In this document: positions 1-13,112 of the stretch, in pieces | How positions within the stretch are numbered: the stretch's first letter is position 1 | Layout: every line of letters starts with the position of its first letter | Source: Nautiliaceae bacterium | GTDB taxonomy: Bacteria; Campylobacterota; Campylobacteria; Campylobacterales; Nautiliaceae | DNA: 64,000 nt | Reading direction: 5' to 3' | NCBI GenBank assembly: GCA_027062285.1 | Contig: JAMOTL010000111.1 | Location: 167-64,166, forward strand | Notes under the pieces: model-generated | What the model saw: only the letters and a program-made list of their open reading frames with translations | The model's database searches: none | Told to the model about the DNA's origin: nothing | Program-made: the position numbers and the translations under genes

Positions 1-108
1 AGATAATTAATAATAATATTTCATGTCAAACTTCTTTTCTTTTCCTATTCCCTCATAAGTTCATTTTGGCTTTTTTCTCATTTTCAAATCTTCATTATCA
101 ATGTTAAT

Positions 109-1950
109 GTTGCAATCCCCTTGAATCGAGTCGGTGTTTCAATCAACGATAGATGCGATTTCAGGTGCTCTATTTTGGGTCGCAATCCCCTTAAGTCGGG
201 TCGGTATTTCAATTCAGATATCATCTTACCTCTAAAATATCTTTTAAAGTCGCAATCCCCTTAAGTCGGGTCGGTATTTCAATAAGAAAACCTTCACTAT
301 CATGTAGATAGTTTATAGTCGCAATCCCCTTAAGTCGGGTCGGTATTTCAATTCAGATATCATCTTACCTCTAAAATATCTTTTAAAGTCGCAATCCCCT
401 TAAGTCGGGTCGGTATTTCAATCCATTATCATTGACTCACTGACAAGATACGGTGAAATGGTCGCAATCCCCTTAAGTCGGGTCGGTATTTCAATGTAGA
501 AGCTACGACGTTCAAGCAGCCTGGTACCTTGATGTCGCAATCCCCTTAAGTCGGGTCGGTGTTTCAATGAAGATGAAATAGCGTTCAGCTCAGTAGCGAG
601 TTCGCTGTCGCAATCCCCTTAAATCGGGTCGGTGTTTCAATATAATTTGTACGATATTTAAGAGAACCACTATTTTTAGTCGCAATCCCCTTAAATCGGG
701 TCGGTGTTTCAATTTAACATCAAATATGTTCAACATTCAATTGGAAGGGTTACGGTCGCAATCCCCTTAAATCGGGTCGGTGTTTCAATATCTTAATGAT
801 TTTTATTCATTGCTTAGTGTGAAGGTGAGTCGCAATCCCCTTAAGTCGGGTCGGTGTTTCAATAGATATATAGATGTGAAAGAAGGGGTGGTTCTGATAT
901 GTCGCAATCCCCTTAAATCGGGTCGGTGTTTCAATAATCCATGCTGACGATGTAATGGTTGTAGCGCTTATTAGGTCGCAATCCCCTTAAATCGGGTCGG
1001 TGTTTCAATATACAGTTATTTTATTTTTTAATTCTTCAATTGTATGTCGCAATCCCCTTAAATCGGGTCGGTGTTTCAATAAAAAATTTAAAAAAACAAA
1101 TAGAAACTTATTTAGGTCGCAATCCCCTTAAATCGGGTCGGTGTTTCAATGACAAAAATGGGAAAGAGTTAAAATAAAATTGAGTGTCGCAATCCCCTTA
1201 AATCGGGTCGGTGTTTCAATATAATTTGTACGATATTTAAGAGAACCACTATTTTTAGTCGCAATCCCCTTAAATCGGGTCGGTGTTTCAATTTAACATC
1301 AAATATGTTCAACATTCAATTGGAAGGGTTACGGTCGCAATCCCCTTAAATCGGGTCGGTGTTTCAATATCTTAATGATTTTTATTCATTGCTTAGTGTG
1401 AAGGTGAGTCGCAATCCCCTTAAGTCGGGTCGGTGTTTCAATAGATATATAGATGTGAAAGAAGGGGTGGTTCTGATATGTCGCAATCCCCTTAAATCGG
1501 GTCGGTGTTTCAATAATCCATGCTGACGATGTAATGGTTGTAGCGCTTATTAGGTCGCAATCCCCTTAAATCGGGTCGGTGTTTCAATATACAGTTATTT
1601 TATTTTTTAATTCTTCAATTGTATGTCGCAATCCCCTTAAATCGGGTCGGTGTTTCAATGACAAAAATGGGAAAGAGTTAAAATAAAATTGAGTGTCGCA
1701 ATCCCCTTAAATCGGGTCGGTGTTTCAATAAAACCACAAAACAACTACAAACCAACAGAGGTAGTCGCAATCCCCTTAAATCGGGTCGGTGTTTCAATAC
1801 AGAGTTGATGGGCAAGACAGTTGTTATCAAAGAATTGTCGCAATCCCCTTAAATCGGGTCGGTGTTTCAATTAATACTGATGTATTAAAAATAACATTTA
1901 CACAGAACCCTTATAGTCGCAATCCCCTTAAATCGGGTCGGTGTTTCAAT
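109..1950 (-). CRISPR. CRISPR array 1: 26 copies of a 35-nt repeat (+ strand GTCGCAATCCCCTTAAATCGGGTCGGTGTTTCAAT), 25 spacers of 34-44 nt (17 unique)
   Basis: I mapped the repeats by eye at 109, 179, 249, 318, 388, 461, 534, 607, 679, 755, 829, 901, 975, 1046, 1116, 1186, 1258, 1334, 1408, 1480, 1554, 1625, 1695, 1764, 1837 and 1916. The leftmost copy (109-143) has 3 substitutions. Copies 2-6 carry an AAG/GTA variant. The strand call is inferred from the degenerate repeat on the left, the leader on the right, and the minus-strand repeat ending in ATTGCGAC. Confidence 0.97.
642..1729. repeat. Tandem segmental duplication inside array 1 (unit about 579 bp; the second copy lacks one spacer-repeat unit)
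   Basis: Six spacers with their repeats at 642-1080 recur identically at 1221-1659, including the AAG repeat variant (829-863 equals 1408-1442). Spacer 1151-1185 recurs at 1660-1694. Spacer 1081-1115 is present only in the first copy. Confidence 0.9.
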
Positions 1951-2160
1951 AGTCCTAAATTTCGGACTTTTGAAAGCAAATATTAAATTAACATTAAAAA
2001 TTTTTAATGCGACTTTTTGCAACAAAATGCCTAAATTTCGGGTTTTCAAAGAACTTTTTTAAATTCGGCAAAAAATGCTAAAATTGTATAAAATTTATAA
2101 AAAAAGCAATATTTTACCTGATTTAAAATCTATTAATATTATACCAAAAAGGAATAAAAA
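1951..2160 (-). promoter_or_regulatory. Putative leader of array 1 (also the divergent promoter region toward cas1)
   Basis: This is an AT-rich 210-bp non-coding stretch next to the non-degenerate end of the array. It contains a 24-nt motif, ATTTCGGGTTTTCAAAGAACTTTT (2035-2058), that is 23/24 identical to 12723-12746 beside array 2. A second motif-like copy lies at 1954-1976, and an 18-bp perfect palindrome, CATTAAAAATTTTTAATG, at 1992-2009. Confidence 0.6.
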
Positions 2161-3015
2161 TTGAAAGATTTATTTATAACCCGTCCCGTTAAAATATCAA
2201 GAGATGCTAAAAGTTTAAAAATAGATGAGGGAAACTTCAAAAAAATTCCCGTTTCTTTGATAAGAAGTGTTTATATTTTCGGAAATGCAGAATTAAACAA
2301 TAGTGCGAGGAATTTATTGTTAGAGTATTCAAGACCTATTTATCTTTTTTCTTCAAAAGGAGAGTTTAGAGGGATTATCCATAATGCAAAATTAAAAAGC
2401 AATTATAAAAACAGGATTTTGCAGTATAAAAATATAGATAACTTAGATATTGCAAAATTTATTGTAAAAAAGAAAATCGAAACAATAGAACATTATACAA
2501 AAAGATCTTTAAACAGATATAAAGAAAAACTTGAAAGTGCAGAAAAATTAAATGAAATTTTAGGAGTTGAGGGGAGTTGTAGCAGATATATGTTTGAAAA
2601 GATAAAAAAAGAGCTTGAAAAAGCAGGTATAGAATTTAAAGGTAGAGAGTTTAGACCCGTTAAAGACAGGGTGAATTCTCTTTTGAGTTTTACTTATTCT
2701 CTTTATTATATGTTTTTGCATACTGTCATCTTAGAAGAAGGGTTTGACCCGTATATTGGTTTTTTGCATAAAAAAAGAGGTACTCATATGGCGTTTGTAA
2801 GCGATGTGATGGAGGGATACAGGGTTTATTTGAGTGCTTTTGTTGTTAAGATTTTGAAAAGAGGAATAATGAAAGATGAGGATTTTAAAGACGGGATTTT
2901 TTTAAACTATGAAGGGAAAAAGAAGTTTATAAGTTATTATTTGGACTTTATAAAAATCCTTGATAATTACTATTTTCTTGAAGAGATAAAGACTAAATTA
3001 AACGCTCACTTATAA
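2161..3015 (+). CDS. cas1: CRISPR-associated endonuclease Cas1 (locus 1), TTG start
   Basis: The 284-aa translation has Cas1 hallmarks: GVEG (catalytic Glu), GFDPYIGFLH (His) and SDVMEGYR (Asp/Glu). It is about 40% identical by eye to the second Cas1 at 8938-9765 and lies adjacent to the array. Confidence 0.9.
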   Translation: MKDLFITRPVKISRDAKSLKIDEGNFKKIPVSLIRSVYIFGNAELNNSARNLLLEYSRPIYLFSSKGEFRGIIHNAKLKSNYKNRILQYKNIDNLDIAKFIVKKKIETIEHYTKRSLNRYKEKLESAEKLNEILGVEGSCSRYMFEKIKKELEKAGIEFKGREFRPVKDRVNSLLSFTYSLYYMFLHTVILEEGFDPYIGFLHKKRGTHMAFVSDVMEGYRVYLSAFVVKILKRGIMKDEDFKDGIFLNYEGKKKFISYYLDFIKILDNYYFLEEIKTKLNAHL

Positions 3016-4102
3016 AAGTTTTATCTAAGTTGCCATTTATTAAGAGTTCGTTTATATCTTTTCCGTATTTTGCATCCCAGTTTAAAAATTTTACATTTAC
3101 ATCATATTCTCTTACTTTTTTAGCAAGGTTTAAGCTTCCTTGAAGTCCGGCTTTATCTTTGTCAAATGCTAAAATTATGGTTTTACCTTTAAAATATGAA
3201 AAATTTATAGGGTTAAAGCTTCCAATTCCCTCAACTCCCACTACATTGATTTTTTTTAGTGACAGTGCGTCGATATGTCCTTCTGTGAAATAAAAAGTGT
3301 CGAATTTTTTAAGTTTGTTTAGTGTTAGCGGGTATGGAAGTGGGTTTAAAAATCTTTTGTTTGACATTTCAAGCTCTTTGAATTTTCCCGGGTATATGTT
3401 TCTGAATCTAAGAGCCGTTAGTAAATTTGAATATAAATCAAAAGAGGGTATTACCGTAAATGAAGAAAAACTGAATTTAAATTTTCCTTTGTGCAATATT
3501 CCGAATTGATTTAGGTATTTGTAATCAAAAAGATTTAAAAGTTTATCCGTTAAATTAAAAGAGTCTTCTTTTGATAAAGAGCCTATGTTTTTGAAATAAG
3601 TGATTTTTCTGTTTAGATAGTAAGCGTTTTTTAGAGTTTGGTCGGTTTTTAGTGAAAAGCTGTAAATATAAGAGATAATGGTTTGGAATTTTTCTTCTAA
3701 ATCAAGATATTTAAAGTTTTTTATATTTTCGCTAAGGGAATAGATTTTTTGTTTTTCGGGGATTTTTAGAGGTTTTAGAATTATTTTTATTTTAATTTTT
3801 GTGGATTTGTTGTTTGAGGGTATTTTATAGTTTTCTTCGTAACCGTTTAAGAGGTTAAAAATATCTTTGTTGCTAAGCCCTCTAAATTCTTTTAAATAAG
3901 TCCAAATAGGGATAATTTCTCCACATTTGTTTTTTCTGTTGCATATAATGATTGGTTTTAGTTCTGTTTTGTTTGGAATGTATGCTTCTTTTTTATGGCA
4001 AAAAGGACATCTTAAATGATAATACGTAGCACGTTTTTTAGGTTCGAGTTCTGGGAGTAAAAGTTCTATGTCTATATTTTGAAAAAGTTTATTTAAATCC
4101 AT
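2993..4102 (-). CDS. DnaG-like protein: N-terminal CHC2-type zinc finger plus C-terminal TOPRIM domain, inverted between cas1 and cas2
   Basis: The 369-aa protein has CPFCH...C(x5)C at residues 32-60, resembling the DnaG zinc-binding domain. FTEGHIDALS (TOPRIM Glu) and ILAFDKDKAGLQG (DxD) closely resemble DnaG motifs IV and V. No helicase-binding C-terminal domain is present. The gene overlaps the cas1 3' end by 23 nt in convergent orientation. Confidence 0.65.
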   Translation of the reverse strand: MDLNKLFQNIDIELLLPELEPKKRATYYHLRCPFCHKKEAYIPNKTELKPIIICNRKNKCGEIIPIWTYLKEFRGLSNKDIFNLLNGYEENYKIPSNNKSTKIKIKIILKPLKIPEKQKIYSLSENIKNFKYLDLEEKFQTIISYIYSFSLKTDQTLKNAYYLNRKITYFKNIGSLSKEDSFNLTDKLLNLFDYKYLNQFGILHKGKFKFSFSSFTVIPSFDLYSNLLTALRFRNIYPGKFKELEMSNKRFLNPLPYPLTLNKLKKFDTFYFTEGHIDALSLKKINVVGVEGIGSFNPINFSYFKGKTIILAFDKDKAGLQGSLNLAKKVREYDVNVKFLNWDAKYGKDINELLINGNLDKTFISERLI

Positions 4103-4110
4103 CGAGCCTC

Positions 4111-4134
4111 TTTTTTGTATAATTATACAAAAAA
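4111..4134. promoter_or_regulatory. 24-bp perfect palindrome carrying TATAAT on both strands, in the 41-bp gap between the divergent TOPRIM gene and cas2
   Basis: TTTTTTGTATAATTATACAAAAAA is its own reverse complement and sits between the start codons at 4102 (-) and 4144 (+). Confidence 0.4.
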
Positions 4135-4143
4135 GGATAAAAA

Positions 4144-4389
4144 TTGCGTTTTGTTGTGGCGTATGATGTCGAAGATGACAGAAAAAGGGTAAAAATTCAA
4201 AAATTTATTTCATCTTTTAGCGATGATTTTCAAAAATCGGTGTATGAAATTGATGTGAGTAAATCCCAAATTAAAGAGATTTTTAAGTTTTTAAATGAAA
4301 TTTGTGAAGAAGATGATAAATTTTTAATATTTCCGGTTATTGAAAGTTTTAGTTTTGGTAAGAAAAACAGAGTGGAGTTTATTATATGA
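4144..4389 (+). CDS. cas2: Cas2 family protein (first of a tandem pair, locus 1), TTG start
   Basis: The 81-aa protein begins MRFVVAYDV (beta1 with the conserved Asp) and has QKSVYEID. Its size is typical of Cas2. Confidence 0.85.
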   Translation: MRFVVAYDVEDDRKRVKIQKFISSFSDDFQKSVYEIDVSKSQIKEIFKFLNEICEEDDKFLIFPVIESFSFGKKNRVEFII

Positions 4390-4634
4390 ATTTAATAATT
4401 TCATATGATATCAGCGATGAAAAAAGATTAAGAAAAGTCGCTAAATATTTAGAAAAAGTTAGTTTTAGAGTGCAGTATTCCGTTTTTTTGTTTCCTAATC
4501 CTAAAAGAGAGCATTTACAAAAAGTTATAAGTGATTTAGTTAAAATGATAGGGGAAGAAGACAGTATTAAGGTGTATAAATTCAGTATGAAGTATGCTAT
4601 TTCAAATTATGAAATCGAAAAATTTATAGTATAG
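4386..4634 (+). CDS. cas2: Cas2 family protein (second of the tandem pair, locus 1)
   Basis: The 82-aa protein begins MNLIISYDISDEKRLRKVAKYL and has QYSVF. Its start overlaps the previous cas2 stop in an ATGA. Confidence 0.85.
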   Translation: MNLIISYDISDEKRLRKVAKYLEKVSFRVQYSVFLFPNPKREHLQKVISDLVKMIGEEDSIKVYKFSMKYAISNYEIEKFIV

Positions 4635-4642
4635 GGATAAAG

Positions 4643-4996
4643 ATGGATGATATTTTTGTAAAAATTGATGAAATGTTTGAAAATGAAAATGTGGCAAAAG
4701 AGATTTTGAATGAGCTTAGAAATATTAAATTTGTTTTGACATCGGGGAGGGAAATTCAAAAAGAAGAAAAAAGAAAATTAAATAAGGCTTATTATAAGTT
4801 TTATTATGAATTCAGAGAAAGAATGAAAGAAAGACCAAGGGAGGGGTATTTTCCGGAATTTGAAATAGATTGTAAAACATACGCCATTAATAAAAACGGA
4901 CTTTTATATGAGAAAACTTCTAATAAAGTTTTGCCAAAATCAGAAGCATTTAAAATTTATGAAAAGATATTTTATGAAGGATATTTTATAATGTGA
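4643..4996 (+). CDS. Hypothetical protein (117 aa) in the cas operon
   Basis: This ORF starts 9 nt after cas2b on the same strand. I recognise no motif. It is rich in charged residues and Tyr. Confidence 0.55.
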   Translation: MDDIFVKIDEMFENENVAKEILNELRNIKFVLTSGREIQKEEKRKLNKAYYKFYYEFRERMKERPREGYFPEFEIDCKTYAINKNGLLYEKTSNKVLPKSEAFKIYEKIFYEGYFIM

Positions 4997-5043: not shown

Positions 5044-5421
5044 ATGAAAAGAATGTTTTTACTTTTTTCACATAAATTAACTGATGAGCAAATTGAAGAT
5101 GCAAAGAAAAGTTTTGGTGTTGATGAGTTTATATATTTGCCACAGAACCTTCAAGAAATATGGTCGAATATTCCGCCTGAAGTTGAGGATATAAAGCCGT
5201 TGCTTGAAGATATCAAACAGTTTTTAAAAGAAAATGCAAAAACGGGAGATATTGTTTTGATTCAAGGTGATTTTGGTGCTGTTGTTGAGATGGTTGAGTT
5301 TATAAGGTTTTGGCTTTTGCCTGTGTATGCCACTACTAAAAGAATCTCAAAAGAGATTGAAAAAGATGGTAAAATCGTAAAGGTGAGTGAATTTAGGCAT
5401 GTGAGATTTAGAAAATATTAA
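5044..5421 (+). CDS. Small Rossmann-like CRISPR-linked protein, possibly Csx20-like (family assignment from memory only)
   Basis: I prefer the ATG at 5044 because AAAGGA lies 5-6 nt upstream; the track's GTG at 4993 is the alternative. The beta-alpha-beta pattern is MFLLFSHKLTDEQIEDAKKSFGV ... GDIVLIQGDFGAVVE. The gene sits directly upstream of the CARF-HEPN gene. Confidence 0.45.
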   Translation: MKRMFLLFSHKLTDEQIEDAKKSFGVDEFIYLPQNLQEIWSNIPPEVEDIKPLLEDIKQFLKENAKTGDIVLIQGDFGAVVEMVEFIRFWLLPVYATTKRISKEIEKDGKIVKVSEFRHVRFRKY

Positions 5422-5430
5422 GGAGAAGGA

Positions 5431-6732
5431 ATGAAAAGGGGGGTTATTACTGTTTTGGGAGCGATTAGTTGTTGGAATAATGAAACAAAAAAATATGATG
5501 TTAATAAAAAAGCCGAATATAAAGTGGATGAAAAATTGCAAAACATTTTTTCTTTCAAAAAGAAAAAATATACTAATATGTTACCTCTTTTGATAGAAAA
5601 TTTTTCTTCGAATTATGAACTTGTGCCTATATATACTCTAAAAGCAAAAGATATACAAACAAATGTTTTGGAAAAATGTGAAAATTTAAAAATTGATATT
5701 GAAAAGTTGTTTGAAAGAGGTGTTTTAATTGAAAATGAAAATGATTTTAAAAGTATTCTAAAGGATATAGATAAAAAAATAAAAGAATATGATGAAGTAA
5801 TTATTGATGTAAGTCATGGTTTTAGACATTTTCCTATTCTTATGACCATTGACTTAATTATTACATCTTTAAAAAATGACAGTGTTAATAAAATAAAGCA
5901 TATTCTTTTTGCGGAAGAAATTCAACCAATGCATTATTATAAGATAATTGATTTAAAAGAATATCTTGAACTTGCTAATTTAGCAGTTATTTTTAATATT
6001 TTTAAAGAAAATTACAGCATTTCAAATCATATTAAGATTAAAAATAAAGAATATGTTGAAATATTAAATCTTATGAAAAAATTTTCAAAAGATTTAATGG
6101 CCTTGTCTATTGATAATTTGCTTTTTAAAGTTGTGCCAACATTAAAAAAAGATTTAAAAGATTTGTTAGAAAAAGATTTTATTTTATTTCAAGATGAAAT
6201 AAACAATATTTTAAGACTTTTAGATGATATTTATACACCTAAAAATCATAGGTATCAAACATTTTATTACATAGCAGATGATGTTTCAAAAGATGAAAAA
6301 GGATATTTAGCCGTTGCTATTTCTTTAATTTTTGAGGGAGTTTCTTTTTATTTTTATACTCAGTTTAAAAAATCTCCAAAATTAAAGGAATTTTTTGAAA
6401 AATTAAAAAAAGATAATTTAAATGATTATGATATTTTGAATTTGTGTAGAGGTGTAATTGATAGAAATAAAGATGACTTAATAGTTTCAAAGAAGATTGC
6501 TAAATATTTTAATGATGAGATTAAAAATGAATTTTATAAAAAAAAAGAAGAAATTTTAAAACCTTTTTATAGAGGTAAATATAATCATTTATTGAGTCTT
6601 TTTTATAAATCAAGAAAATTAAGAAATAATTTATTGCATGCTAATAGTGGAGAGAGAGTTGAGAAAGTACATAAGGAAGTTAGAAACTTAATAAAAGCTT
6701 ATAAAAGAACTTTAATCAAAGGTAAAAAATGA
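5431..6732 (+). CDS. CARF-HEPN protein of the Csx1/Csm6 type (predicted cyclic-oligoadenylate-activated RNase)
   Basis: The N-terminus has VITVLG plus DVSHGFRHFP, which is CARF-like. The C-terminus has RNNLLH, matching the HEPN Rx4-6H motif. Length is 433 aa. Confidence 0.8.
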   Translation: MKRGVITVLGAISCWNNETKKYDVNKKAEYKVDEKLQNIFSFKKKKYTNMLPLLIENFSSNYELVPIYTLKAKDIQTNVLEKCENLKIDIEKLFERGVLIENENDFKSILKDIDKKIKEYDEVIIDVSHGFRHFPILMTIDLIITSLKNDSVNKIKHILFAEEIQPMHYYKIIDLKEYLELANLAVIFNIFKENYSISNHIKIKNKEYVEILNLMKKFSKDLMALSIDNLLFKVVPTLKKDLKDLLEKDFILFQDEINNILRLLDDIYTPKNHRYQTFYYIADDVSKDEKGYLAVAISLIFEGVSFYFYTQFKKSPKLKEFFEKLKKDNLNDYDILNLCRGVIDRNKDDLIVSKKIAKYFNDEIKNEFYKKKEEILKPFYRGKYNHLLSLFYKSRKLRNNLLHANSGERVEKVHKEVRNLIKAYKRTLIKGKK

Positions 6733-8112: not shown

Positions 8113-8552
8113 ATGGAAAAAAGTTTTTGTATCGATATGGATAATGTTTTGGTTGATTTTCCTTCAGCGTTTGAATATTTAAATGAAGATGCTTTAAAAA
8201 AATATGAAGGAAAACTTGATGAAGTGCCTGGAATTTTTGCTTTAATGAAGCCGGTGGATGGAGCGATGGAGGCATTTAAAAAGTTAAGTCAAAAATGTGA
8301 TGCTTATATTCTTTCCACATCTACTTGGAACAATCCAACTGCATGGAGTGATAAGCTTGAGTGGGTTAAAAAATATTTAGAATATGTAGTTTATAAAAGA
8401 CTTATTTTAACTCATCATAAAAACTTAAATAAAGGTGATTATTTAATAGATGACAGGACAAAAAAGGGACAGGAGATTTTGAGGGAGAGCTTATTTTATT
8501 TGGAACTGATAAATTTCAAAACTGGCAAAGCATTTTGAATTATCTTCTTTAA
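8113..8552 (+). pseudogene. NT5C-family (HAD) 5'(3')-deoxyribonucleotidase, interrupted by a -1 frame change at 8460-8466
   Basis: IDMDNVLVDF (DxDxV) and LIDD motifs lie in frame 0. After ...DDRTKK the family-typical tail GTGDFEGELILFGTDKFQNWQSILNYLL continues in the -1 frame from 8466 to the stop at 8550-8552. The frame-0 ORF ends at 8538 with a non-conserved tail. Confidence 0.7.
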
Positions 8553-8634: not shown

Positions 8635-8829
8635 ATGAAAAAGTTTGAAAAATGTGTAATTTCTATAGCTTTATTGGGAGCTAAGATAGGGGGAGAAATA
8701 GGTAAAAAAATTGATAAGGAAAAAGGTGAAACTATTGGCAGTGTTATTGGAGGAGTTGTTGGAGGAGCATTAGGAGTAGCTGTGTGTATTAAAACAGATG
8801 AAAGCATAGAAAGGGAGCAGCTTAAATGA
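8635..8829 (+). CDS. Small glycine-zipper membrane protein (64 aa)
   Basis: A strong RBS (AAAGGAGAAAAA-ATG) precedes it. GSVIGGVVGGALGVAV contains GxxxG repeats. The N-terminus, MKKFEKCVISIALLGAKIGG, ends in Gly-Gly. Confidence 0.5.
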   Translation: MKKFEKCVISIALLGAKIGGEIGKKIDKEKGETIGSVIGGVVGGALGVAVCIKTDESIEREQLK

Positions 8830-8937: not shown

Positions 8938-9765
8938 ATGAAAAAGAATTTATATATTAATGAAGGTGAAATAAAAAGAGATTGTAATGTTTTAAAAATA
9001 GCTAATAAAAAAATTCCTATTAGTATGATTGATAACGTTTTTGTGTTTGAAAAAGTTAAAATGAGTATTAGCGCCAGGAACTTACTTTTGAAAAATAAAA
9101 GAAATATTATTTTTTTAAATAAGAGATATGAATTTGTTGGGATTTTATTGCCTGAATTTTTAAGAAGTGATTTTGGTAATCGGTTGTGGCAGTATGAGAA
9201 TAGGAATAATTTGGATTGTGCTAAATTTATTGTTTTTAAAAAAATAGAAGAAATTGAGAAAAATATTAATAAAAATTTGGATTTTATGAAATTGAAACTC
9301 AAACAAGCTAAAACGTTAAATGAAACTTTAGGAATAGAAGGGCAAGCAAGTAGGCTTATGTTTGATAATCTTAAAAAGAAACTTAGAAAAAAAGGTATCA
9401 CTGAATTTGAAAAAAGAGCATATAATCCTGCGACCGATAGAATAAACGGGGTTTTGAGTTTTTTATATACCCTTTATTACAGTTATGTAATTAGTGAGAT
9501 AATTTCTATCGGGTTTGATCCTTATATCGGGTTTTTACATCAAAAAAGAGGAAAACATGCAGTTTTTGCAAGTGATGTTATGGAAGAAGCAAGGGTAAAA
9601 CTTACATTTTTATGTTTAGAGGTTTTAGATGAAGTTTATCCTGATATGTTTGAGGATAGATATTTGACACGTGAAGGGAGAAAAAAAGTTTTAAAAAAAT
9701 TTGATGAGTTTTTATTAGAATATGATAACTCTATTTTAAAGAATTTTAAGGAGAAGAAATGTTAG
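8938..9765 (+). CDS. cas1: CRISPR-associated endonuclease Cas1 (locus 2)
   Basis: The 275-aa protein has the motifs GIEG, GFDPYIGFLH and SDVMEEAR. It is a paralog of the cas1 at 2161. Confidence 0.9.
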   Translation: MKKNLYINEGEIKRDCNVLKIANKKIPISMIDNVFVFEKVKMSISARNLLLKNKRNIIFLNKRYEFVGILLPEFLRSDFGNRLWQYENRNNLDCAKFIVFKKIEEIEKNINKNLDFMKLKLKQAKTLNETLGIEGQASRLMFDNLKKKLRKKGITEFEKRAYNPATDRINGVLSFLYTLYYSYVISEIISIGFDPYIGFLHQKRGKHAVFASDVMEEARVKLTFLCLEVLDEVYPDMFEDRYLTREGRKKVLKKFDEFLLEYDNSILKNFKEKKC

Positions 9766-10499
9766 TGTTTATAACTCATCCCAAATATTTTGATAAAAGA
9801 AAAATAGCAAGAAAGAAAATAGATCTTATTTATATTTTCAATTCTAAAAAGCTTTACAGTCAATTAAGTGAAAAATATAAGTGTGTAAACATAGGGAAAG
9901 ACGGAAAAATTAAACAAGAAAATTTTTTTCCTCAAGCAAAAAAATACAAACGTATTACAAAAGAAAAATTCATTGATTTAAAAATAGGTATCGTAAAATA
10001 TTTTGCAAAGAAGAAACATTCAGTACAAAGAAAATATTATGTTATGTTGAAAGGACCTTACTCTGATCCTTTGATGCATTATGGTTTTCATAAAGCAAAA
10101 AAAAGTGAATTCAACGAAGGAACAATGATATTAGATGCTATGATAGTAAATTATATAGCTGAAATATTTAGATTGGAAAAAGGTGAAGAGTTTACCAATA
10201 AAAATAAAAGATACATTGAATTACTCCTAAATTTTTCTCATAGTTTTTATAGGGCGTATGTTTATTCTCTGGGATATGAAAGGGGTATGGAAATTTTTTC
10301 TGAAGTTTTTAAATTTAACTATTTTAAAAAAGTTAGTCTGTACTATACATTTAATAAATTCGATCTTTATCAAGATAGGTTTCATTTTAATTATTTAAAA
10401 GTTTTAAGCAGACTTTTTGTTGAAGACATTCATAATAACAATATTGAGGAATTTATACAAAAAAATATCACTTATTATAAGGAGAATGGATGGTTGTAA
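9759..10499 (+). CDS. Uncharacterised 246-aa protein embedded between cas1 and cas2 (locus 2)
   Basis: An AAGGAG RBS lies 5 nt upstream. The ORF overlaps the cas1 stop by 7 nt and the cas2 start by 10 nt, suggesting translational coupling. I recognise no Cas4, Cas6, Csn2, RT or nuclease motif. It contains only one Cys. Confidence 0.7.
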   Translation: MLVFITHPKYFDKRKIARKKIDLIYIFNSKKLYSQLSEKYKCVNIGKDGKIKQENFFPQAKKYKRITKEKFIDLKIGIVKYFAKKKHSVQRKYYVMLKGPYSDPLMHYGFHKAKKSEFNEGTMILDAMIVNYIAEIFRLEKGEEFTNKNKRYIELLLNFSHSFYRAYVYSLGYERGMEIFSEVFKFNYFKKVSLYYTFNKFDLYQDRFHFNYLKVLSRLFVEDIHNNNIEEFIQKNITYYKENGWL

Positions 10500-10732
10500 T
10501 AGCTTATGATATTAGAGACAATAAAAGATTAAAAAAAATAGCTAAATATCTTGAATCTCATGGTATTAGAGCACAAAGAAGTGTTTTTGAAATAGATATT
10601 AGTCCTAGAAAAGCTAAAAAAATTTTTCAGGGATTAAAGAATATTATAGGTGAGGGAGATAAATGTTTTTTATTTGAAATAAAAGATAAAGAAGATATTC
10701 AGGCAAATACAGATATTGAAAGGATATTGTAA
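10490..10732 (+). CDS. cas2: Cas2 family protein (first of the tandem pair, locus 2)
   Basis: The 80-aa protein begins MVVIAYDIRDNKRLKKIAKYL and has QRSVFEIDI. An AAGGAG RBS precedes it. Confidence 0.85.
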   Translation: MVVIAYDIRDNKRLKKIAKYLESHGIRAQRSVFEIDISPRKAKKIFQGLKNIIGEGDKCFLFEIKDKEDIQANTDIERIL

Positions 10733-10986
10733 TGTATATAGTAGTAACCTATGATATTTCAAATAACAAACAAAGAAATAAATTAGCTAAAGAATTGCTT
10801 GTATTTGGAATAAGAACTCAAAAGAGTTTTTTCGAATGTGAAGTGACTGAAAAAGAACTTAAAGTAATTAAAAAAATTCTAAAAAGATATTCTCAAAGTG
10901 ATGATTTTGTAACAATTTATAAAATAAAAGTGTTAGAAAGAGTAGGTGATGTTGAGTATCTTGAAATAGATGATTTGATTTTTTAA
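10732..10986 (+). CDS. cas2: Cas2 family protein (second of the tandem pair, locus 2)
   Basis: The 84-aa protein begins MYIVVTYDISNNKQRNKLAKEL and has QKSFFECEV. Its start overlaps the previous stop in a TAATG. Confidence 0.85.
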   Translation: MYIVVTYDISNNKQRNKLAKELLVFGIRTQKSFFECEVTEKELKVIKKILKRYSQSDDFVTIYKIKVLERVGDVEYLEIDDLIF

Positions 10987-11084
10987 TCTCTTTAATTTTC
11001 TACAAAATTTTTCCTTCCTATTTTTTTATAAATCTATCTCAGGATAAATAGCCTTGTGTAATCTCAAATAATAATATTTATAAT

Positions 11085-12638
11085 GTCAATCCTTTAAATC
11101 GGGTCATTGGTTAAACCTCCATTTTCAGGGGCGAAAAATGTCTCTATGTATTAGGTCGCAATCCCCTTAAATCGGGTCATTGGTTAAACCTTCAAGATGT
11201 GGCAGATGCTAAAGTGGCCGGGTTCTGTCGCAATCCCCTTAAATCGGGTCATTGGTTAAACTGGTACAACCGAAGATAACTTAAGACCTACTGAAGGTCG
11301 CAATCCCCTTAAATCGGGTCATTGGTTAAACAATATGGCGTCCGGGACTTTGGAGGTCAAAATGGTAAAGTCGCAATCCCCTTAAATCGGGTCATTGGTT
11401 AAACCTAGTGCGGCACCTACCATTAGAACTCAATTACCGTATGGGTCGCAATCCCCTTAAATCGGGTCATTGGTTAAACTTAAAATTTAGAAAAGGTGAG
11501 AGCGAAAAGCTCTCAATAGAGTCGCAATCCCCTTAAATCGGGTCATTGGTTAAACCCTCTGATGAAGTAGAAATAGATTTAGATGCGCTTTTCCGTCGCA
11601 ATCCCCTTAAATCGGGTCATTGGTTAAACATCCTCGGCGACCTGCAGGACATTATAGCATGCGGAGGAAAGTCGCAATCCCCTTAAATCGGGTCATTGGT
11701 TAAACAGACCGGCAGCTGAAAAACTATTTAACGCACAATGGGTCGCAATCCCCTTAAATCGGGTCATTGGTTAAACAAAGTACAAAAAAAAATAAAAGAA
11801 GTAAGAGAGTTGTTAGTCGCAATCCCCTTAAATCGGGTCATTGGTTAAACCATTTGGAAGAGAAAAAAATTCCAATTACATATAAAAATGTCGCAATCCC
11901 CTTAAATCGGGTCATTGGTTAAACTGAGCGGAGCGGTGAAAGCCGCACCTGGAGTAGCGTCGCAATCCCCTTAAATCGGGTCATTGGTTAAACGCAGTAA
12001 TAGGTGCTACTCTGATGGTAGCATCATATGTGTCGCAATCCCCTTAAATCGGGTCATTGGTTAAACACAAAACAGTGTAGTTAAAGGTCAAAATGCAAAA
12101 GTTAGTCGCAATCCCCTTAAATCGGGTCATTGGTTAAACCGAGATCAATCCATATGATATGTTGATATATTTTATGTCGCAATCCCCTTAAATCGGGTCA
12201 TTGGTTAAACTGAAGTAATGTTGAATGCGATGTTTGAGGCCGGCTACAACGGTCGCAATCCCCTTAAATCGGGTCATTGGTTAAACGGAAATTTTTGGGG
12301 AGAAGGGAGCGAAAATCTCGGTCGCAATCCCCTTAAATCGGGTCATTGGTTAAACTCCCAGTGGAAGTTGTGATGTATAGCCTCTACGAGGGTCGCAATC
12401 CCCTTAAATCGGGTCATTGGTTAAACCTCTTATAATTTTAAAAAACGATGAGGAAGCAATTAGTCGCAATCCCCTTAAATCGGGTCATTGGTTAAACATT
12501 GGTCACGCATGAAAATCGAAGGCGACAAGGGGTCGCAATCCCCTTAAATCGGGTCATTGGTTAAACCTACGTTTAGCACCGCTGCAAAGGAACTTGCCAC
12601 TGAGTCGCAATCCCCTTAAATCGGGTCATTGGTTAAAC
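11085..12638 (-). CRISPR. CRISPR array 2: 22 copies of a 35-nt repeat (+ strand GTCGCAATCCCCTTAAATCGGGTCATTGGTTAAAC), 21 unique spacers of 33-41 nt
   Basis: The repeats are regularly spaced. The leftmost copy (11085-11116) is degenerate at 32 nt, with deletions and a substitution. All other copies look identical by eye. The strand is inferred as for array 1. Confidence 0.97.
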
Positions 12639-12830
12639 CCATCGAACTTTCTATGTTTTTGCGACTTTTTAAAGCTTAAAGTTTGCTTAAGCGACTTTGG
12701 GCAAAGTCTTAAAAATATCAATATTTCGGATTTTCAAAGAACTTTTAATTTTTCACAAAGTTTAACAAAAAATTGCTTTTTTTGCAAATTTTGAAAATTT
12801 TGTGAAAAAAATAATTAATTTTAAAAGCGA
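12639..12830 (-). promoter_or_regulatory. Putative leader of array 2
   Basis: This AT-rich non-coding stretch lies next to the intact end of the array. It contains ATTTCGGATTTTCAAAGAACTTTT (12723-12746), which is 23/24 identical to 2035-2058. GCGACTTT elements occur at 12661 and 12691, matching one at 2009 in leader 1. Confidence 0.6.
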
Positions 12831-13112
12831 TTCCTATCCTCCACCCTTAAATGATAGGGTTTTCAAAAAGCTTTATTAAAGGAATCATATTTATATATTA
12901 TAACATATTTTCATATACTTTCTATGTCAGAAAATAAAAATTTAAGGGGAAAGTATAAAAAGATTAGCGAAAATTATTACGGCAATAAGTGTAGCGGCGG
13001 TTTTATCGATGAGTGCGAGTGCGTTTGAGCCTGTTAAAAAATCTTATATTGATATAGCTTTTAAGTAAATTCCTCCTTTTTTTTAGGTTATAATAAATAA
13101 AAAGGAGAGAGA

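Follow-up and report, generated by a model that had tools for sequence, protein, structure and literature searches.

The cas1–X–cas2a–cas2b operon

The DNA analysed here, referred to as the window, is a stretch of 64,000 nt from a Nautiliaceae bacterium (assembly GCA_027062285.1, contig JAMOTL010000111.1, positions 167 to 64,166 of the forward strand) that carries two CRISPR adaptation modules. The subject of this study is the second of these, in which a gene for a protein of 246 amino acids (aa), called X or Cas1-prime below, lies between cas1 and the first of two cas2 genes. The operon encodes four different subunits, namely Cas1, a Cas1-like protein and two distinct Cas2 proteins, and its features are as follows.

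8938-9765, plus strand: cas1, encoding a short Cas1 of 275 aa (Pfam Cas_Cas1 PF01867, E = 1.8e-42; TIGR00287, E = 2.1e-39)
9748-9753, plus strand: AAGGAG, serving as ribosome-binding site of X and located within the 3' end of cas1, read from the sequence
9759-10499, plus strand: gene X ('Cas1-prime'), encoding 246 aa, with a predicted Cas1 fold and no conserved catalytic His
10490-10732, plus strand: cas2a, encoding 80 aa of the first-position lineage (Pfam CRISPR_Cas2 PF09827, E = 1.5e-18)
10732-10986, plus strand: cas2b, encoding 84 aa of the second-position lineage (Pfam CRISPR_Cas2 PF09827, E = 1.9e-17)

The ribosome-binding site is separated by 5 nt from the ATG of X (9759), and the stop codon of cas1 (TAG, 9763-9765) produces a 7-nt overlap between the two genes. 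At the other end, the stop codon of X (TAA, 10497-10499) lies beyond the start of cas2a (10490), an overlap of 10 nt, and cas2a is preceded by an AAGGAG of its own. The translational coupling of X on both sides suggests that it is produced in a fixed ratio with Cas1 and Cas2a. The protein is rich in Lys (15.0%), Phe (9.3%) and Tyr (9.3%) and has a single Cys (C42). An earlier analysis, made from the sequence alone (the original prediction), had described this open reading frame (ORF), its ribosome-binding site, both overlaps, the lone Cys and the Lys/Tyr/Phe-rich composition, and a fresh reading of the sequence confirmed each of them. It had also taken X to be an integral member of a cas1-X-cas2-cas2 operon, and this arrangement is conserved in nearly all of the related loci with intact flanks (see below). 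The operon Cas1 retains an intact catalytic set (E134, H201, D213 and E216, all invariant alignment columns). The two Cas2 proteins are 34% identical, and the C-terminal motif of Cas2b is GDVEYLEIDDLIF.

X is a real and functional gene under strong purifying selection. Its ratio of non-synonymous to synonymous substitution rates (dN/dS), determined against three close relatives, is 0.07-0.08; cas1 has a value of 0.14, and the cas2 genes range from 0.08 to 0.17. A chance ORF is ruled out by this ratio and by the existence of a family of homologues. Over long distances X outpaces its partners, with Cas1 proteins 38% identical, X proteins 25% and Cas2 proteins 46-50%.

Sequence searches and family size

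Searches of Pfam, NCBIfam, PADLOC, PHROGs and the PDB sequences, using X either as a single sequence or as a family profile, returned nothing significant, and the best sub-threshold match (Herpes_UL49_1, E = 0.15) is noise. The curated Cas1 models of Pfam, NCBIfam and PADLOC fail to match X even at E <= 1. Ten distant members of the X family and three further variants were also compared with Pfam, and none of them matched Cas1. Profile searches, which the original prediction had proposed as a route to the identity of X, therefore gave no significant family match. Its statement that Cas4, Cas6, Csn2, reverse transcriptase, DEDD and TOPRIM signatures are absent was borne out, as none of these has a profile match to X in Pfam, NCBIfam or PADLOC, and none occurs among the structural matches described below. 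The proposal that X is a divergent Cas6 or Cas4 likewise finds no structural or profile support.

The X family has few members. Among 5.8 billion proteins a word-indexed search returned 28 clusters of homologues, and a profile search run exhaustively on 1.84 billion representatives returned 40 matches, nearly all of them 230-300 aa in length. The named public copies are all labelled "hypothetical protein".

Predicted structure of X

An AlphaFold2 model of X was built from the 28-sequence alignment (predicted local distance difference test score, pLDDT, 94.8; predicted template modelling score, pTM, 0.91). It has a small beta domain at the N-terminus (residues 1-57) and, after this, a domain made up entirely of helices, which is the two-domain architecture of Cas1 (PF01867/TIGR00287; e.g., TM1797 4XTK, Aquifex aeolicus 2YZS, and Pyrococcus 4WJ0 and 7EI1). 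In a Foldseek comparison with the PDB the best 50 matches were all Cas1 or casposase chains, the top one being 4xtk_B (TM1797 of T. maritima; E = 1.2e-4, probability 1.00, query template modelling score 0.64, 309 aligned columns). A library of viral structures gave no meaningful match. P0169, a family member from locus L045 (L numbers refer to the locus census below) that is 18% identical to X, was also modelled (AlphaFold2 pLDDT 92.8), and its best 32 Foldseek matches in the PDB were again all Cas1 or casposase. The modelling thus shows X with a predicted two-domain Cas1 fold. A confident match to a known Cas family, an outcome that by the terms of the original prediction would refute it, was in this way obtained at the level of structure and not at that of sequence, and the family is Cas1, which had not been considered there.

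A faint signal can also be seen when profiles are compared. A profile of the broad X family (42 sequences) aligned with a Cas1 profile (25 sequences) at E = 0.02-0.04 (hhalign), with the elements in collinear order all the way between first strand and last helix. With a profile of the close family only a 28-column match was obtained (E = 0.27), which improved only with the broader family and the variant of X found at L050. The L050 variant gave E = 0.009 against the Cas1 profile, and two of its motifs, 'RVPIEKIDFIF' and 'FLSDDITED', correspond to 'KIPISMIDNVF' and 'FASDVMEEA' of Cas1. Judged by these alignments it has the appearance of an evolutionary intermediate linking Cas1 and X. The variant (L050 6046-6855) is 269 aa in length and keeps the longer, Cas1-like N-terminal hairpin.

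The likeness to Cas1 could be an artefact of structure prediction, X being an unrelated helical protein. The sequence profiles, which have no significant Cas1 match, would be compatible with this, as would the modest Foldseek E-values (1e-4) and the root-mean-square deviations of 6-8 Å. An artefact would not, however, be expected to give exclusively Cas1 and casposase chains among the best 50 matches of X and the best 32 of P0169, with a top probability of 1.00, nor structural alignments that span both domains. The hhalign comparison, moreover, stays collinear along the whole protein, Cas1 motifs can be recognised in the L050 variant, and the gene for X adjoins cas1. An artefact is accordingly regarded as very improbable indeed.

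Active site and conservation

The four catalytic columns of Cas1 (E134, H201, D213 and E216) are each 100% conserved in the operon Cas1 and its relatives. The X family looks quite different. In 42 X sequences the best His column reaches only 67%, and this lack of a conserved His is independent of any alignment between X and Cas1. The X column aligned to E134 is Asp or Glu in 64% of the sequences, and those aligned to D213 and E216 (E178 and E182 of X) are acidic in 64% and 83%, respectively. As the alignment suggests, the His-bearing loop of X is shorter by about 13-15 residues, and its N-terminal hairpin is also shortened relative to Cas1 (hhalign). Conservation scores of the main regions are distributed in the two families as follows.

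Cas1: active-site region (His loop and D/E helix) 0.48, the highest; N-terminal domain 0.27; C-terminal hairpin and helix 0.28
X: helices equivalent to the active site 0.16-0.23, the lowest; N-terminal domain 0.38; C-terminal hairpin and helix 0.42

The conservation pattern of X is the inverse of that of Cas1. Both the conservation and the divergence are what a non-catalytic subunit retained for its surfaces would be expected to show, and X is, on these alignments, probably non-catalytic.

It might instead be an active enzyme, a second integrase or a nuclease, with a remodelled site in which D202 and E222 (together with E182) replace the Glu-His-Asp set. D202 and E222 are acidic in 98% of X sequences and E182 in the 83% given above, dN/dS is lower for X than for cas1, and the L050 variant retains a 'SDDITED' motif. 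The family nevertheless has no conserved His, and the helices equivalent to the catalytic pocket of Cas1 are the least conserved part of the protein. In addition, the hhalign mapping places D202 and E222, along with F220, in the C-terminal hairpin and helix (residues 197-226), outside the Cas1 active site. An active enzyme therefore appears improbable.

These data are best explained if X is a paralogue of the Cas1 integrase that has diverged widely and from which most of the active-site conservation has gone. Like Cas1, it is encoded beside cas2 and a CRISPR array, and the order of its elements is collinear with that of Cas1 in the profile alignment; unlike Cas1, it has neither a significant profile match nor a conserved catalytic His, and the position of the first catalytic Glu is variable. 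Because X lacks two defining traits of Cas1, the profile match and the catalytic residues, it is filed as a new, inactivated Cas1-like family that belongs to the Cas1 superfamily by fold and context, and not as Cas1 proper.

Census of related loci and the two Cas2 lineages

Fifty loci were collected, and their ORFs were classified with hidden Markov models. The genes for Cas1, X, Cas2a and Cas2b follow one another on one strand, overlapping or nearly abutting, in nearly all loci with intact flanks, which answers the call of the original prediction for a neighbourhood census of homologues. The four-gene order is kept in metagenome-assembled genomes (MAGs) of Nautiliaceae and Nitratifractor, in the MAG with a Cas1 (87% identical to that of the window) that NCBI names Caminibacter pacificus, and in the remote branches L045, L046, L047, L049 and L050, in which the identity of Cas1 is about 40% and X has 256-269 aa. 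The named genomes in the X clade are Campylobacterota MAGs. Throughout the census X is found in addition to an intact Cas1 and never as its replacement, the decayed locus L035 aside. In the latter, an array of 61 repeats (15-4362) precedes an internally deleted X gene (5074-5802), no cas1 or cas2 is detectable, and the module is probably decaying. L010 holds a frameshifted copy. In the metagenomic locus L028 the order is X-cas1-X-cas2a-cas2b, with two different X genes (784-1545 and 2613-3332) flanking cas1. In the window and in L001, L003, L006, L012, L026, L043 and L047, the module has arrays of one and the same repeat family at its flank.

In a neighbour-joining tree of Cas2 proteins the first-position copies form one clade and the second-position copies another. 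As this holds in every X-bearing branch, the split must be old, and the four genes travel together. Related modules without X (locus 1 of the window, L010 and L044) also have one Cas2 of each lineage. Two divergent Cas2 genes, one per old lineage, are present in every module of the short-Cas1 clade that was examined, except for truncated or decayed loci. Their arrangement varies: in locus 1 (4144-4634) the order of the two is reversed relative to 10490-10986 and the pair is 17% identical, and in L044 (65-1463) the order is Cas2-Cas1-Cas2, with the two Cas2 genes on either side of cas1. A rough tree of Cas1 (neighbour-joining, no support values) has the X-bearing modules surrounding the X-less, TOPRIM-associated ones, which suggests that X is ancestral to the short-Cas1 clade and was lost in some lines.

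CRISPR arrays, locus 1 and neighbouring genes

The operon lies next to array B, and a second array (A) lies beside locus 1. The corresponding features of the window are listed here.

109-1950: CRISPR array A, with degenerate copies at its left end, as in array B
2161-3015: cas1 of locus 1
2993-4102, minus strand: TOPRIM gene of locus 1, encoding 369 aa, with a Cys-rich motif resembling a zinc finger at the N-terminus and a Toprim domain at the C-terminus
4144-4389 and 4386-4634: cas2 pair of locus 1
11082-12638, probably minus strand: CRISPR array B, with 21 perfect 35-nt repeats and one degenerate repeat nearest cas2
12639-12850, minus strand: putative leader of array B, sharing motifs with the right flank of array A (flank alignment)

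The right flanks of array A (1951-2160) and array B (12639-12850) have two motifs in common, GCGACTTT and ATTTCGGrTTTTCAAAGAACTTTT, the second of which sits about 86 nt from the last repeat. Because the degenerate repeats are at the left end and the leader motifs on the right flank, both arrays are probably read on the minus strand, which would give a ...AUUGCGAC handle. The repeats of the two arrays are identical over 24 nt (GTCGCAATCCCCTTAAATCGGGTC) and differ in the other 11 nt (GGTGTTTCAAT versus ATTGGTTAAAC), which are the leader-proximal part. It is as though the two Cas1 modules each had a repeat 'address' of their own and shared the processing of CRISPR RNA.

The original prediction placed X in a position equivalent to that of the TOPRIM gene of locus 1, with no resemblance between the two. 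The sequences are indeed unrelated; the equivalence of position is loose, as the TOPRIM gene is on the minus strand and therefore outside the transcription unit of the cas1 and cas2 genes of locus 1. X as an equivalent of this gene was rejected for the same two reasons, opposite strand and unrelated sequence. A similar Toprim protein occurs in L048 (9081-10247): after a related Cas1, the opposite strand there encodes DUF7017, a PIF1-type helicase and the Toprim protein. The gap in L010 (1591-2717) is grouped with the Toprim genes of locus 1 and L048. This arrangement may represent a primase/helicase-associated variant of adaptation.

Upstream of the operon are genes for Csx20, a CARF-HEPN Csx1 and a WYL protein (Pfam, NCBIfam and PADLOC), and because of these genes the context of the module points to type III. 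An effector module was sought elsewhere in the window, and the genes at 44-56 kb were found to be housekeeping genes. Among the more distant Cas1-X-Cas2-Cas2 modules, that of L049 adjoins a 702-aa RAMP-family protein (L049 1-1981) and that of L050 a Cas_APE2256 protein (L050 1433-2953), neighbours that fit a type III association of the whole clade. An ORF of 117 aa (4643-4996) lies between the cas2 pair of locus 1 and csx20, has no Pfam match and overlaps the start of csx20 with its end; it may be another CRISPR-linked gene. Just 5' of the operon cas1 are a gene resembling NT5C-type 5'(3')-deoxyribonucleotidases (8113-8538) and a small Gly-rich ORF of 64 aa (8635-8829). The close relative L043 shares the deoxyribonucleotidase-like gene and the small Gly-rich ORF before cas1 (9176-9616 and 9698-9892), and a called ORF of 44 aa overlaps the start of cas1 in L043 (9889-10023) and L003.

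Proposed role of X

X is almost certainly a component of the adaptation module. To this extent the original prediction of a novel adaptation accessory factor stands; the part that does not is novelty of kind, since two AlphaFold2 models with their Foldseek matches, and weak but collinear profiles, give X a Cas1 fold. The N-terminal domain of Cas1 is its dimerisation domain. Because X has the Cas1 fold, no longer has the catalytic His, conserves its N-terminal domain well and is coupled between cas1 and cas2a, it is on balance judged likely to be a non-catalytic Cas1 paralogue that serves as a permanent structural partner of Cas1 in a heteromeric integrase. In such a scheme X, an intact Cas1 and the two Cas2 proteins would be made from one message by translational coupling, and X would pair with the catalytic Cas1 by way of the N-terminal beta domains, in the position that a non-catalytic Cas1 protomer occupies in every known Cas1-Cas2 integrase. 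Two Cas1-X pairs could then sit on a Cas2a-Cas2b heterodimer, (Cas1·X)2(Cas2a·Cas2b), and the resulting integrase, which would have no two-fold symmetry, would add spacers to the adjacent array at its leader end. Here we infer the catalytic inactivity of X, the pairing of Cas1 with X and of Cas2a with Cas2b, the stoichiometry and the effect on integration.

Several observations weigh against this interpretation. The hhalign probability of the match between X and Cas1 is just 1-4%, so that support for homology at the sequence level is weak, and the curated models of Pfam, NCBIfam and PADLOC are silent, as noted above. The alignments used to model P0169 and X largely overlap, making the replication only partly independent. 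The correspondence of active-site residues between Cas1 and X rests on low-confidence alignments and not on superposed structures, and the strongly conserved D202 and E222 could form a site of their own. Lastly, locus 1 and L044 have two Cas2 genes without X, and the Cas2 pair as such consequently does not require it.

IHF, Csn2 and Cas4 assist other integrases, and X could similarly be a separate accessory factor of Cas1 descent, probably a homodimer, which acts outside the Cas1 dimer by binding the leader or the leader-proximal end of the repeat, or by capturing and measuring prespacers. Strict operon membership and purifying selection would fit any essential role in adaptation, and relatives with the same Cas2 pair do without X. 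The two different X genes around a single cas1 in L028 fit such a factor better than they fit a fixed 1:1 partner, and, since arrays A and B differ only in the 11 leader-proximal bases of the repeat, some component must read the difference. On the other side, the whole two-domain architecture of Cas1 is kept and the N-terminal domain is strongly conserved, as for a protomer that dimerises in the manner of Cas1, and the coupling on both sides suggests a fixed ratio with Cas1 and Cas2a. A separate accessory factor is thus considered rather unlikely.

Another proposal makes X a built-in brake, an inactive Cas1 that would limit the uptake of self-targeting spacers by poisoning or titrating Cas1 or Cas2. 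The architecture of an inactive paralogue is compatible with a dominant-negative role of this type, but a brake would not be expected to hold a fixed, coupled place between cas1 and cas2a even where the identity of Cas1 has dropped to about 40%, nor to be under tighter constraint than cas1 itself, and the proposal has very little likelihood.

Comparison with known integrases and significance

Casposases (PDB 6OPM) are found among the structural matches of X. They are active integrases with the catalytic set; X differs in having no conserved His, and the examined loci show cas1, cas2 and a CRISPR array and no casposon-like setting. Another parallel to the proposed partner of Cas1 is offered by Cas4-Cas1-Cas2 (types I-C and I-B), where the extra subunit makes the integrase asymmetric and sets the orientation of spacers. 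X resembles Cas4 in being an extra adaptation subunit encoded in the operon, one that could make the integrase asymmetric. Cas4, a nuclease of the RecB family, carries an Fe-S cluster and recognises the protospacer-adjacent motif (PAM); X is unlike it in having one Cys and no RecB/Cas4 profile match.

In all described systems, to our knowledge, both Cas1 protomers come from the same gene, and every CRISPR integrase that has been described is a symmetric Cas1(4)-Cas2(2) complex specified by one cas1 and one cas2 gene, in which half of the Cas1 subunits are silent by position only. The searchable literature, which includes the 2025 CRISPR classification update and leaves many subscription papers outside, yielded no account of a Cas1 paralogue that has been inactivated, nor of a single adaptation operon with paired cas2 genes. 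The Cas1-Cas2 complex of E. coli has two asymmetric Cas1 dimers on a Cas2 dimer, with one Cas1 of each dimer catalytic (PMC10011333). The other protomer (Cas1b) is structural and does no chemistry (PMC10011333), and X looks like a dedicated gene for the Cas1b role, which would be hard-wired in a separate, inactivated paralogue. Type III adaptation has been reported to be PAM-independent (PMC9048733). It is conceivable, though tentative, that a four-polypeptide asymmetric integrase, with (Cas1·Cas1-prime)2 on Cas2a·Cas2b, has non-equivalent ends that could fix the leader-side end of the prespacer without a PAM and match each integrase to its repeat 'address'.

A dedicated inactivated Cas1 paralogue and two specialised Cas2 proteins would separate the catalytic and structural roles of the integrase genetically, so that what the non-catalytic protomer does could be tested directly. 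Some 40 clusters now labelled 'hypothetical proteins', which current profile libraries miss, would be definable as a Cas family. The system would also provide a model of how an integrase loses its symmetry, and bears on how the insertion site and the polarity of spacers are chosen in PAM-independent (type III-associated) adaptation.

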